DNA from: an uncultured Acidobacteriaceae bacterium
Lineage (GTDB): Bacteria; Acidobacteriota; Terriglobia; Terriglobales; Acidobacteriaceae
Assembly (NCBI GenBank): GCA_963808695.1
Contig: CAWEHF010000026.1
Coordinates: 14,161-78,160 of the forward strand
Direction of reading: 5' to 3'
Length of the DNA: 64,000 nt
Shown here: piece after piece, positions 14,848-21,966 of the stretch
Layout of the letters: each line of letters opens with the position of its first letter
How positions within the stretch are numbered: position 1 is the first letter of the stretch
Notes under the pieces: model-generated
The model's input: only the letters and a program-made list of their open reading frames with translations
What the model was told of the DNA's origin: nothing
Database searches by the model: none
Position numbers and translations under genes: made by a program

Positions 14848-14923
14848 TGGTGGGCCCGGAGGGATTTGAACCCCCAACCAAGGGATTATGAGTCCCCTGC
14901 TCTAACCGTTGAGCTACAGGCCC
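14848..14923 (-). tRNA. tRNA with CAU anticodon, elongator type (Met, or Ile2/lysidine type), CCA encoded
   Basis: Minus-strand 76-nt sequence GGGCCTGTAGCTCAACGGTTAGAGCAGGGGACTCATAATCCCTTGGTTGGGGGTTCAAATCCCTCCGGGCCCACCA folds as a cloverleaf. Acceptor stem is 7 bp, anticodon loop is CTCATAA, and G1:C72 excludes an initiator. Confidence 0.95.
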
Positions 14924-14924
14924 T
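14884..14924. repeat. att repeat (copy forming the 5' part of the intact tRNA)
   Basis: GATTATGAGTCCCCTGCTCTAACCGTTGAGCTACAGGCCCT, identical to 21926..21966; corresponds to tRNA nt 1-40. Confidence 0.9.
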
Positions 14925-16062
14925 TCAATGACTTACGGACGCTGCTCCCACCAATGTAGCGGATACTGTAGCGGGTGGCAGTCGTTTTCGGCTCGATTAC
15001 GGCGAAATCGCCGGACAGTTGAAGCCGCTCGAAAGCCCGCTCAACTGCCTCCGGGGTTGGATGGATGTACCGCTGCGAAACCACGATGCTGCTGTGACCG
15101 GCAATCCGCATGATGGTAAAAGCATCCACTCCCGATTCTCCAAGCCTTGTAAGCATTGTATGGCGTAGAGAGTGGAGTACGAAATCAGCCGGAAAGAGCG
15201 CCCGCCGCTTCCCTTCGATCTTGGGAGCGCAAGCGTCCCGGTGCAAGTGATTGATTGACGTTCCCAGGTACGGGTTGCCGTCCCGGTTGGCAAAGACAAA
15301 CCCGCTCACCTTGGACCCTTCCCGCTCCCGGAGCATCGCAGCCGCCCGGTCTGTGAGCGGGATAACCCGGCGGGCATTCTTGCTCTTGCCTTCCCTCACT
15401 CGCAGGAATCCGAATCGAGCGCCATTGACCGGCGCAAGCGTAATGTCCGCCCATTCCAGATGCAGCGCCTCTCCGATGCGCAACCCGGATTCCAGCATCA
15501 GGAGTGCAATATTGCACAACGGTTGCGGGCAAGCGGCAAGGTAGATTTCCTCTTGCTTCCGGGAGAGAACGAAATCCCGGACCCGCTCCCCAGTGAGTAA
15601 CCGGATTTTCGGGACGCGCTGAATCTCTCTCCACTCATGGGCAAGCCTAAGCATCCGGCGAAGGGTAGCAAGCTCCCGGTTGACCGTTGCAGGGCCTACA
15701 GCGGCGCGGCGGGCCACCACGTAGCCCTCTATGATTCCCTCGTCTATCCGGTCGAGCCTTGCCCCGGCAATGGGCGGATATTCGAGCAGCCGATTCAGCT
15801 TCGCCGCGTAGAACTGGACTGTCTGAGGCTTGTTCTCATGGCGGGCTTCCACATGGGCGATGAATCGCTTGGCAATGGCTGAAAACATCGGAGCGGCCTT
15901 GCGCGCTTCGATTCCCACTTCGCCTTTAGCAAGGGCGGTACGCTTTGCCGCTTCGATCTGGCGGGCCGTGCGCGGGTTCCCCTGTTTCGTGCTCGCCTGA
16001 ATGTGCTCCCCGTTGAACAGGAAGTGATACCAGTACACGTTGCCGCGCTTGAAAATGCTCAT
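14914..16062 (-). CDS. int: tyrosine recombinase / phage-type integrase (382 aa)
   Basis: Start MSIFKRGNVYWYHF at 16062 (ATGA overlap with the upstream gene). Catalytic residues in LESGLRIGEAL, HSLRHT and IAGHSSIVVSQRYIH. The stop codon lies 10 nt inside the tRNA 5' end. Confidence 0.95.
   Translation of the reverse strand: MSIFKRGNVYWYHFLFNGEHIQASTKQGNPRTARQIEAAKRTALAKGEVGIEARKAAPMFSAIAKRFIAHVEARHENKPQTVQFYAAKLNRLLEYPPIAGARLDRIDEGIIEGYVVARRAAVGPATVNRELATLRRMLRLAHEWREIQRVPKIRLLTGERVRDFVLSRKQEEIYLAACPQPLCNIALLMLESGLRIGEALHLEWADITLAPVNGARFGFLRVREGKSKNARRVIPLTDRAAAMLREREGSKVSGFVFANRDGNPYLGTSINHLHRDACAPKIEGKRRALFPADFVLHSLRHTMLTRLGESGVDAFTIMRIAGHSSIVVSQRYIHPTPEAVERAFERLQLSGDFAVIEPKTTATRYSIRYIGGSSVRKSLKGL
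14955..14977. repeat. arm-type repeat, copy 1 (TGTAGCGG x2)
   Basis: TGTAGCGGATACTGTAGCGGGTG, identical to 21800..21822. Lies 31 bp inside the element from the att core, within the int 3' coding region. Confidence 0.6.
15504..15517. promoter_or_regulatory. palindromic operator-like site, copy inside int
   Basis: GTGCAATATTGCAC. The 19-nt string CAGGAGTGCAATATTGCAC is identical to 21593..21611. Confidence 0.45.
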
Positions 16063-16733
16063 TTGCTTTTCCCCCTTGCCAATCGCAATGATCGTGCGTT
16101 CCGTTCCGGTTCTTCGCTCCGATATTTCCTCATGTACTTGCGGCGCTGTTCTTTGAACGATTCGCCCTGGGCCGCGTCCCGCTTCCGGCACCTATCCCCG
16201 CAATACTTCTGGTGATCTGTCACCGCGAAAAACCACTTCCGGCATTCCGCATGGCGACAGCGGCGAATCCGATGTACCGCGTTTATGTGGTCCATGAGCC
16301 ATGCAACCGCCACGCACTCAGGTTTCGCGCCTTCGCTCGCCGCAAGAAACTCGAAACTAACGTCAAAGCAAGTATCAGGTTCCGCGACATACCGGACGCG
16401 GGGAACGCATCTGTATTTGGACACTCGCGCGTAGAGTTCCTCCATGATTTCGTTTAACTCTGCATCCAACGCTTTCCAGTCGGGGCCGAGACCCGATGCG
16501 AGCTTAATAGCCTGATCCAACTGAATCACCCGTTGACAGGCTTCAACTACCCACGTGACGCGCTCTGTAACGCTGCTAGGCTTCCCGTTCAATAGCCGGA
16601 TGAGATTCTGATCGGCCCACCTGGACATTGCACTTGGACTCAGGCCGGATTGCACTATGGTGCGCTTGGCAGTCTCGGCCGCGCTGAGTGTCTTGGATGT
16701 CTGTAACGGACGCGATGTGATTCCCATACGCAT
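16059..16733 (-). CDS. hypothetical protein with C-terminal C4 zinc finger (CGNR-like)
   Basis: 224-aa ORF co-transcribed with int. C-terminus RCRHAECRKWFFAVTDHQKYCGDRCRKR resembles the CGNR Zn-finger pattern, followed by a basic tail. Confidence 0.55.
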   Translation of the reverse strand: MRMGITSRPLQTSKTLSAAETAKRTIVQSGLSPSAMSRWADQNLIRLLNGKPSSVTERVTWVVEACQRVIQLDQAIKLASGLGPDWKALDAELNEIMEELYARVSKYRCVPRVRYVAEPDTCFDVSFEFLAASEGAKPECVAVAWLMDHINAVHRIRRCRHAECRKWFFAVTDHQKYCGDRCRKRDAAQGESFKEQRRKYMRKYRSEEPERNARSLRLARGKSK

Positions 16734-16800
16734 ATCACAATAACACTAGCCTCCCTTTGGATGCAATGCAATTCTTTTGGAGTGGTTTGGAGGATTTCCC

Positions 16801-17010
16801 ATGAAACGAGTGCTCTTGAGTGTCGAAGAGGCAGCACAAAGGCTGGGCGGCGTCTCCCGGTGGACGGTTTACTCGTGGATGAGCCAGGGACGGCTACGCA
16901 GGACGAAAGTTGGCAGCCGGGTGATGGTTGCCGAAACCGACTTAGAAGGGTTCATCGCTTCATGCAACCCGGAGCCTGCCGCGCCGGACCCGGCAGAGCG
17001 AGCAAGCTGA
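16801..17010 (+). CDS. excisionase-family helix-turn-helix DNA-binding protein
   Basis: MKRVLLSVEEAAQRLGGVSRWTVYSWMSQGRLRRTKVGSRVMVAETDLEGFI matches the MerR-like excisionase pattern. Divergent from the int operon. Confidence 0.8.
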   Translation: MKRVLLSVEEAAQRLGGVSRWTVYSWMSQGRLRRTKVGSRVMVAETDLEGFIASCNPEPAAPDPAERAS

Positions 17011-17101
17011 CAGAGTACATCGGGCCGCGCACAGGGCAATCGAGGGCGTGTTCAGCACAATGGAAAGGCCCACGCGGGAACGTGGGCCGGAAAGGTAAAT
17101 C

Positions 17102-21434: not shown

Positions 21435-21448
21435 TGCGATATTGCACA
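21435..21448. promoter_or_regulatory. palindromic operator-like site (one mismatch)
   Basis: GTGCGATATTGCAC, 70 bp upstream of the HTH gene start at 21365. Confidence 0.45.
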
Positions 21449-21595
21449 AGCCCGTGGATACCGTCGCGCCCTCACTGCCGGAAGTGGATCGCGCTCTTTA
21501 GTGGGACGGCTTGTGTCTTTCGCCTGATGTTCTTTGCTGCTCAACGTTCACGCTTACCCTTTAATGCGATGCCATCCAAACCCCACGGGGCCAGG

Positions 21596-21611
21596 AGTGC
21601 AATATTGCACT
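21596..21611. promoter_or_regulatory. palindromic operator-like site (perfect 16-bp palindrome)
   Basis: AGTGCAATATTGCACT. Confidence 0.5.
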
Positions 21612-21799
21612 TTCACTCCAGAGCCTTCACAGCGCCCGCTATGCCTCACGGCAGGGCAAAGGGCTTGCAAACGCTCACAGGGGCTTTCTGTGCGCCCGCG
21701 CCCCATCCTGTACGGGTTTCCCGCTACCCTGAAATGCGGCCAGCGCAGGCCATGACCATAGAAGAGCACGGAACGGTTCCAATCCGCGATGCGGGCGAC

Positions 21800-21822
21800 T
21801 GTAGCGGATACTGTAGCGGGTG
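21800..21822. repeat. arm-type repeat, copy 2
   Basis: Identical 23-mer, about 103 bp inside the element from the other att core. Confidence 0.6.
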
Positions 21823-21925
21823 TCGGTTTAGATGGGGTTGTGCCGGTTTGGACCGCAACCCCCTAAGTCTCTGAAATTACAACGGGAAGCAAACCGCAAC
21901 AAATGCAGCAAAACGGGTGGTCTGA

Positions 21926-21966
21926 GATTATGAGTCCCCTGCTCTAACCGTTGAGCTACAGGCCCT
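21926..21966. repeat. att repeat (orphan 5' half of the tRNA)
   Basis: Identical 41 nt. The sequence diverges from the tRNA after position 40. Confidence 0.9.

Follow-up and report, generated by a model that had tools for sequence, protein, structure and literature searches.

Targeting of the 5′ part of a tRNA gene has been called "considerably less frequent" than integration into the 3′ part, in an account that cites Zhao & Williams 2002 for bacteria along with a number of archaeal cases, and integration into tRNA genes in reverse orientation is described as "seldom encountered in bacteria" (PMC8371274). In the Thermococcales, pTN3-like integrases use the 5′ half of a tRNA gene as their attB, and expression of the recombinant tRNA is attributed to the promoter of the integrase (PMC8371274, reviewing Cossu 2017; Krupovic & Bamford 2008). 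The filters of Islander explicitly accept 5′ fragments upstream of the tDNA. For an element of Mesorhizobium loti, the attachment (att) block is reportedly the 5′ part of the tRNA gene, with the displaced fragment upstream and the intact gene beside the element. Here, we describe an element of this kind in a stretch of 64,000 nucleotides from an uncultured Acidobacteriaceae bacterium (contig CAWEHF010000026.1; hereafter the window), where an integrase gene (int) abuts the only tRNA gene of the window, a tRNA-Ile2-type gene with anticodon CAU. With considerable confidence, we explain the locus as a whole by integration into a reversed target, after which the tRNA would be expressed from the element and from which excision would restore the native gene.

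In this scheme, the integrase acts on the tRNA-Ile2(CAU) gene of the host, where it recombines around the anticodon loop, with the target reversed relative to the usual arrangement. The attP of the element carries tRNA positions 1–40 directly after the 3′ end of int. After integration, the 5′ half of the host gene and its promoter are therefore found at the distal end of the element (21966–21926, with the promoter at 22010–21983), while the working gene consists of an element-borne 5′ part and a host 3′ part (14923–14848). Both the sequence itself and the related loci establish these integration steps. The working tRNA would then be transcribed within the element and released by RNase P. The best candidate for its source is a promoter in codons of the int catalytic domain, possibly together with read-through from int and the preceding gene (orf224) or with a weak −10-like box in an arm-type repeat. 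Precise excision would restore the native gene, and deletional decay leaves the last 250–370 bp of int on the tRNA.

The Element and Its Attachment Repeats

The tRNA gene (14848–14923, minus strand, anticodon CAT, CCA encoded), located with ARAGORN, lies at the 3′ end of int (14914–16062, minus strand) and is read in the same direction. An exact direct repeat of 41 nt was found at 14884–14924 (the int-proximal att copy) and 21926–21966 (the distal copy), both on the minus strand, where the chance expectation in 10 kb is effectively zero; the int/xis element (named after its integrase and excisionase-like genes) occupies the 7.04 kb between the two repeats (14925–21966). Read on the tRNA strand, the repeat comprises the base before +1 followed by tRNA positions 1–40, and its boundary at position 40, which recurs in 13 other elements, is two bases past the anticodon loop. 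The original prediction had equated both copies with tRNA positions 1–40, which the repeat search and ARAGORN confirm with the addition of the one upstream base.

Since the repeat equals positions 1–40, the displaced copy is the 5′ half of the gene and lies upstream of the intact one; it continues with TCAGAC inside the element. In short, the direct repeat is a fragment of the adjacent tRNA gene and int adjoins att, as in other tRNA-targeting elements, but it is the 5′ part that has been displaced, and the element borders directly on the intact gene, the mark of reverse orientation. The identity block ends at the anticodon stem-loop, which places the site in the anticodon-loop sublocation class (Williams 2002). 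The proposal of a site-specific integrative element of reverse polarity is thus borne out, the same layout being present in 13 further elements. Judged by these boundaries, the intact tRNA is a hybrid, with its 5′ part borne by the element and its 3′ part by the host.

That the CAU tRNA is of the Ile2 type, as had been suggested, is supported by its best matches across all 5,426 Escherichia coli genomes, which are genes annotated as tRNA-Ile (83% identity over the full length of 76 nt), and by its C4-G69 and C5-G68 pairs. The G1-C72 pair excludes an initiator tRNA, and we treat the gene as tRNA-Ile2, with a body that appears Ile2-type rather than Met or fMet. The 5′ part from the element and the 3′ part from the host also fit each other across the hybrid junction, as in four related loci (L010, L016, L019, and L026), where A7 and T66 pair; this fit argues that the hybrid tRNA would be functional. 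One metagenome contig (L150) carries two intact copies of the same tRNA-Ile2 gene 3.8 kb apart (145–220 and 3939–4014), so the gene is not single-copy everywhere.

Recurrence in Relatives and Traces of Recombination

An integrase scan of one genome per species yielded 46 related loci, of which 45 bear the label Acidobacteriaceae, Terracidiphilus, or a name related to these. Wherever the int was at least 57% identical and a tRNA was present, this was tRNA-Ile2, after int and on the same strand. The same layout was seen in at least 14 complete elements and in about 30 int–tRNA junctions of Acidobacteriaceae genomes, with a displaced copy 7.0–10.8 kb upstream in 12 genome loci and 1 metagenome contig. 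In all 13 of these, the displaced copy ends at position 40 and then continues with T[CT][AG][AG]AC. On this comparison, the element family is specific to the Acidobacteriaceae and combines a core of int and xis with variable cargo. A 71%-identical int–tRNA-Ile2 junction (L016, OY970299.1) is located in a chromosome labelled Verrucomicrobiae, and its tRNA matches those of L019 and L026; it could represent cross-phylum transfer or a labelling issue.

The relatives also allow recombination to be followed at the level of single sites. Segments of the window element are 97–99% identical to the elements of L015 and L020, with unrelated host flanks. The loci L008 and L009, which come from the same site, share 10.5 kb at 99.98% identity, and this match stops exactly at tRNA position 40, past which one continues with the 3′ half of the host tRNA and the other with an element end (an attP-like or tandem junction); this suggests that the two junction types occur side by side at one site. 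The att copies differ at position 6 or 17 in L001, L006, and L015, which puts the crossover 3′ of position 17, and presumably within the anticodon loop. Empty sites were drawn from an unbiased tRNA-Ile2 pattern search of metagenomes: the sequences on either side of the L006 element align to L059 (about 85% identity), a contiguous locus from which the 7.25-kb element is absent, and the pairs L013/L131 and L005/L058 behave likewise.

Junctions of the attP-like kind, in which the int tail, the tRNA 5′ half, and the element end succeed one another, are found at L008 11181–11220, L044 10279–10318, and L037 2207–2246, and they point to tandem arrays or assembled circles. L008 also holds 250-nt repeats that are 87–90% identical (82–327, 2046–2293, and 11805–12052).

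Canonical Relatives and a Probable Flip in Polarity

Integrases that are 36–46% identical adjoin tRNA-Pro(TGG) or tRNA-Cys(GCA) genes on the opposite strand, in the usual 3′ orientation, and their displaced fragments are 3′ parts (positions 30–77, 24–75, and 46–77). These canonical relatives cluster apart from the Ile2 group in a neighbor-joining tree, and polarity, as far as the compared loci tell, is a property of the clade. They share an arm block between int and att, consisting of ACCCGCTACAGT(A/T)TCCGCTACAGT, a spacer, and AAGTnaTTGA. The identity blocks of the two groups are mirror-imaged about the anticodon loop, with the canonical one starting two bases before it (position 30) and the reversed one ending two bases after it. 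The simplest reading is that the target was reversed in one integrase lineage while its arms and core geometry stayed the same.

The Integrase and Its C-Terminal Tail

The int product is a tyrosine integrase of 382 amino acids with R195, H297-x-x-R300, H323, and Y332 (as read from the translation), hence with the R...HxxR...H...Y catalytic domain of tyrosine recombinases, preceded by an N-terminal SAM-like core-binding domain. It matches PF00589 (Phage_integrase, E=3e-22) and PF02899 (SAM_1, 6e-06) in Pfam and the phrog_1 integrase in PHROG (6e-53). As it falls below the cut-off of every XerC/XerD-type NCBIfam model, it is not a Xer equivalog.

The original prediction had placed the stop codon of int inside the tRNA. 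This is where it lies (TAG at 14916–14914, tRNA positions 8–10, the reading frame entering the tRNA by 10 nt), but it is not a feature of the family. An extra A in the homopolymer run GCCGAAAACGAC (14992–14981) shifts the frame of the last 24 int codons, so the overlap is a mutation or a sequencing error and not a design feature; the int of L015 reaches the same in-tRNA TAG via a different frameshift. Among the full-length relatives with an intact frame, 18 of 23 end in ...AVSH-TGA (or a variant of 1–2 residues) 1 nt before tRNA +1, and 3 more end 2 nt before it. The conserved tail reads ...KRLPPATVSATLxGxxAVSH and is followed by TGA at −4 to −2. Across these relatives, the true family feature is the near-abutment of int and tRNA. 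Premature stops or frameshifts, read from the matched start, are also present in the int genes of the metagenome-assembled genomes L013, L019, L020, L023, L024, L025 (CAWFGQ010000002.1), L026, and L042. They may reflect true pseudogenes or errors of long reads in homopolymers, and they bear on how the extra A in the window int should be judged.

Transcription of the tRNA in the Integrated State

At the displaced half, the promoter scan found one sigma-70-like site where 0.2 are expected, namely TTCACG-16-CATAAT (21983–22010, minus strand), whose −10 ends 17 nt before tRNA +1 and which resembles a native host promoter. Unoccupied tRNA-Ile2 genes from metagenomes carry TACAAT/TACACT-like boxes 12–35 nt upstream. 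The claim that the intact tRNA has been severed from its native promoter is supported, as this site stays with the displaced half. With the native promoter separated and only int coding sequence upstream, the tRNA must be transcribed from inside the element, which was the second part of that claim and which we likewise infer.

Our candidate for the internal source came from comparison across the clade and lies within int, at 15155–15183 on the minus strand (232–260 nt upstream of tRNA +1). Its −10, TACAAT (15160–15155; −237 to −232), is formed by the codons CAT ACA ATG of His301-Thr302-Met303 within the HSLRHTM box, and its −35 is TTCGTA (15183–15178) in the window copy and TTGTGA in most relatives. 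Whether this int-embedded promoter, with its TACAAT about 235 nt upstream, would drive the tRNA is in our view an even call. The codons CAT ACA ATG are present in 25 of the 27 ints of the reversed clade, whereas TACAAT is absent from all nine canonical relatives in which the motif can be located, where the RHT(F/W) codons vary freely. Within the clade, His301 is encoded by CAT in 100% and Thr302 by ACA in 94%, against a mean major-codon frequency of 0.68 over 229 conserved degenerate columns. Other fixed His codons in int are CAC, and other fixed ACA codons occur only in the arm sites. In L005, the sigma-70 scan calls TTGTGA-16-TACAAT (9/12) as a promoter.

A second line of evidence comes from decayed elements. 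In an unbiased metagenome sample of 119 classifiable tRNA-Ile2 genes, a full-length int lies upstream of 4–5 and a shorter co-directional int match upstream of 19, about 17 of which are clear C-terminal remnants (L074 and L084, with 28% identity, are among the 19 and may be intact integrases of a more distant family). The tail block alone precedes 4 of the 119, and about 90 have no trace of int. Short int 3′ remnants are thus found upstream of about 15–20% of the sampled genes, and the genome set adds eight (L034 in OY970305.1, L038, L040, L041, and L043–L046). The remnants have differing breakpoints and upstream DNA (ordinary host genes in L034 and L041), and they come without xis and without a displaced 5′ half within 4–10 kb. 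The int-derived DNA that they retain measures 251, 261, 263, 266, 269, 277, 293, 302, 303, 305, 348, 351, 361, 366, 429, and 546 nt, with a cluster at 251–366 nt, just above the position of TACAAT. Across 17 pseudogenised remnants, no stretch upstream of the tRNA is invariant over a greater length than ACAAT, which all of them share. Together, the remnants and the placement of TACAAT at the inner edge of their range point to a promoter nearer than the operon start.

More tentatively, and with a little less than even confidence, we propose that the 3′ end of int may double as promoter and leader of an essential host tRNA, so that decay would stop about 250–370 bp upstream, and that such fossils may have permanently replaced the native promoter in about 15–20% of the sampled genes that have this tRNA sequence. 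If this holds, RNase P would cut the int mRNA of the integrated state 1 nt after its stop codon and would not do so on the excised circle, which has the 5′ half-tRNA only. The fate of the int mRNA would then be set by the integration state, which is reminiscent of lambda sib retroregulation. A genuine int-embedded promoter would also be a lasting regulatory footprint of a mobile element on a core translation gene.

Critically speaking, a series of findings weighs against this picture. The sigma-70 scan of window positions 14700–16300 found no promoter; the −35 of the window copy matches at only 3 of 6 positions, and the site stays below threshold. The call in L005 does not exceed what shuffled sequence would give (1 found, 0.6 expected). 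Two of the 27 clade members (L010 and L019) are devoid of TACAAT, and so is the remnant L048, which retains only 57 nt; in L103, the arm region has been lost and the TACAAT box kept. Co-directional host genes often precede the remnants and could provide read-through, and many remnants are young, so their conservation is partly shared ancestry. The window int itself has a frameshifted tail and may be impaired, unless the extra A is a sequencing error. The search for empty sites that the original prediction had called for succeeded in the three pairs of relatives given above, but the window-specific site (the native flank joined to the intact tRNA) gave 0 matches in an exact search of metagenome contigs. 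Finally, a second and more divergent reversed subfamily (metagenome loci L081, L102, L155, L158, and L163), which has co-directional int remnants before tRNA-Ile2, is without TACAAT in its RHT codons; it shows the arm-like sequence GCTACGTTTCTAGATACAG and AT-rich GATAAT/TATAAA boxes 8–13 nt before tRNA +1.

The TACAAT box and the clustered remnant lengths may therefore be unrelated to tRNA transcription and reflect a protein or codon constraint, shared ancestry, or the site of another factor, an explanation to which we give appreciable, if minority, weight. The box is part of the most conserved protein motif, codons 306–311 are under synonymous constraint as well, many remnants are 80–93% identical to intact ints, and L048, L010, and L019 manage without it. 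On the other hand, the canonical relatives share the RHT motif and yet vary freely at the synonymous sites, CAT and ACA are AT-rich codons amid 58–60% GC in a gene whose other His codons are fixed as CAC, and the box is invariant even in frameshifted remnants with decayed flanks.

We consider it less likely than not that the tRNA is altogether promoterless and made solely as the 3′ end of an orf224-int operon transcript that is cut by RNase P. Such a route gains from the close approach of the int stop to the tRNA, with a distance of 1 nt to +1 in the family and an overlap in the window copy, and from the terminator scan, which found no convincing terminator between int and tRNA. As the bidirectional, terminator-like hairpin at 14786–14814 only follows the tRNA, 34 nt past its 3′ end, orf224-int read-through with subsequent RNase P cleavage is possible. 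This mechanism has been stated for the archaeal pTN3-like integrases (PMC8371274), and no consensus promoter was called in the window region scanned. However, at least 17 genomes keep an intact tRNA-Ile2 gene behind only 250–370 bp of int, where the 5′ part of int and its promoter have been deleted and no displaced half is left within 4–10 kb, and the TACAAT box shows a clade-specific constraint at the DNA level.

Another candidate, the block immediately upstream of the tRNA (ACCCGCTACAGTATCCGCTACA...GTAAGTCATTGA), was rejected as tRNA promoter. The canonical tRNA-Pro/Cys relatives also have it ahead of att, and translated in the normal frame of the family it yields the int tail ...PPATVSAT...AVSH*. 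The most plausible reading is one of putative arm-type sites, possibly plus an integration host factor (IHF)-like site; a weak promoter role of TACA[CT]T at about −38 is possible.

Excision and the Addiction Idea

The original prediction went on to suggest that the arrangement would stabilise the element in an addiction-like manner, but this fails for clean excision. As the two copies are identical at 41 of 41 nt and the native promoter has been kept, excision by the integrase would rebuild the native gene, and the arrangement is not addictive. The idea of an addiction module, in which element loss deprives the host of an essential single-copy tRNA, does have points in its favor: tRNA-Ile2 genes are usually single-copy and essential, the working tRNA is separated from its native promoter, and int 3′ fragments outlast the loss of the remaining element. 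A similar effect has been proposed for phage-inducible chromosomal islands (PICIs) that damage the displaced tRNA fragment (PMC10111431). We nonetheless regard it as very improbable: the empty sites of relatives, with their native flanks, are intact genes, the remnants show that all but about 300 bp of the element can disappear, and about 80% of the sampled tRNA-Ile2 genes bear no trace of it.

An assembly artefact or chance duplication, which would leave the tRNA beside int as no product of recombination, can practically be dismissed, because the only thing found for it is that the exact search of metagenome contigs did not recover the window's own empty site, while the exact 41-mer, the identical architecture (with the same repeat bracketing the elements) in 13 other contigs from independent projects, and the empty sites and alternative junction that break exactly at position 40 all contradict it.

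Gene Content, Putative Arm Sites, and Neighborhood

Besides int, nearly all full elements have only one gene in common, which encodes an excisionase-like protein with a helix-turn-helix (HTH) domain of the HTH_17 type (16777–17010, plus strand; Pfam 2e-11; PHROG "excisionase and transcriptional regulator" 3e-10) and is the putative directionality factor. Between it and int lies orf224 (16059–16733, minus strand), which overlaps the int start (ATGA) and is probably co-transcribed with it. Its product of 224 amino acids has a Cys-rich C-terminal motif, homologues in L015, L020, and some canonical elements, and a NinG match in Pfam that is only weak and sub-threshold. A DUF3631 protein (17102–18352, plus strand; Pfam 1.5e-30), putatively cargo or replication-associated, is shared only with L015. 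Two XRE-type HTH proteins are encoded at 20471–20686 (plus strand; Pfam HTH_3 3.6e-16) and 21168–21365 (XRE65, minus strand; Pfam HTH_3; PHROG transcriptional repressor), the latter being the first gene past the stranded host promoter, and there are zinc-ribbon and membrane open reading frames (ORFs) as well. Pfam and PHROG profile searches detected no virion, packaging, primase, or conjugation genes in the element, and int has no relatives in IMG/VR; it thus qualifies neither as a prophage nor as a P4- or PICI-like phage satellite.

The sequence CCGCTACA forms a tandem pair adjoining the int-proximal att copy (14955–14974, minus strand), which includes the weak −10-like TACATT, and a second pair on the opposite side of att (21800–21819, minus strand). 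Four of its five copies in the window belong to these two pairs, where the chance expectation is 0.97 copies, and the pairs fit the pattern expected of arm-type integrase-binding sites, for which they are candidates. The arm at 21800–21819 is 96% identical over 55 nt to the arm of a tRNA-Cys element in L039.

Further repeats lie within the element. A perfect palindrome of 14 bp, GTGCAATATTGCAC, occurs three times, always inside it (15504–15517, 21434–21447, and 21597–21610; 0 expected by chance), with two copies upstream of the XRE-type gene at 21365 and one within int; a 19-mer that flanks it, CAGGAGTGCAATATTGCAC, recurs without change at 15499 and 21592. The palindrome is probably an operator for an HTH protein of the element. 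Within XRE65, a 13-nt match to tRNA positions 8–20 (AACCGTTGAGCTA) is found at 21219–21231, about 700 nt from the displaced half, and also at L015 3380–3392 and L020 2923–2935; it could be a product of chance or the trace of an older att.

The stranded host promoter (22010–21983) points into the element, and five ORFs (XRE65, Zn76, orf184, mem195, and orf142; 21365–18922, minus) share its strand. As there is also no clear terminator after the displaced 5′ half, the host promoter might drive these element genes only in the integrated state.

On the 3′ side of the tRNA, the region 11492–14754 contains mobile debris. It includes a GmrSD_N restriction-type protein (11492–13291), a dip in GC to 0.49–0.54, and the C-terminal fragment of a different tyrosine integrase (14461–14754, plus strand, ...LAGHKTISMSARYAHL; PF00589 6e-4), which points toward the tRNA 3′ end. 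A displaced 3′ tRNA fragment, the mark of a second and canonical island, was not found on this side.

Comparison with Known Systems

The Acidobacteriaceae of peat and soil provide a series of intact elements, tandem arrays, empty sites, remnants, and normal-orientation sister integrases with the same arms. This series is suited to asking how an integrase lineage flips its target orientation and how an essential tRNA stays expressed after the loss of its promoter. For genome annotation, it accounts for short "integrase" pseudogenes directly upstream of tRNA-Ile2.

Set against the Mesorhizobium loti element (Zhao & Williams 2002, J Bacteriol 184:859), as it is described in the papers that cite it, the present locus belongs to another phylum and another integrase clade and targets tRNA-Ile2. 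Moreover, its arrangement is documented across dozens of genomes, and the series extends to empty sites, junctions in tandem, and the remnants of decayed elements. With the pTN3-like elements it shares the 5′-half target and, presumably, tRNA expression from the element side. The pTN3-like elements, however, carry archaeal SSV-type "suicidal" integrases, whose ORF contains att and is cut in two upon integration. In our element, the integrated int is whole: the family stop lies 1 nt before the tRNA, and since the crossover is 3′ of tRNA position 17, beyond the stop even in the window copy, no splitting occurs.

The class I anticodon-loop integrases with lambda/P4-like logic (Williams 2002 and Campbell 2003, as relayed in PMC8371274) resemble our system in their stem-loop core and overlap, their two-sided tandem arms, an int that adjoins attP, and the presence of an xis-like HTH gene. 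The difference is that the target is inverted here relative to the arms, and that the block covers positions 1–40 whereas that of the relatives runs to the 3′ end. The dusA-specific integrases (Farrugia 2015, PMC4482086) likewise target the 5′ end of a host gene, which the element must therefore replace, but their target is protein-coding and their integrase family is a different one. Finally, the tRNA-damaging PICIs (PMC10111431) are also small int-alpA/xis elements in tRNA genes (including Ile2) for which an addiction-like effect has been discussed. Unlike our element, they have the 3′ orientation, and they remove bases from the displaced fragment, which our element leaves unharmed. Nor does our element show any phage-related packaging genes.

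Because 5′-half targeting with element-side expression has been published, both the kind of element and the main inference of the original prediction were already established. The locus is a well-supported bacterial example of a kind that is rare yet known, and it belongs to a sizeable clade. What may be new is the clade-specific, synonymously fixed TACAAT in int codons 301–303, together with the abundant int remnants upstream of tRNA-Ile2.

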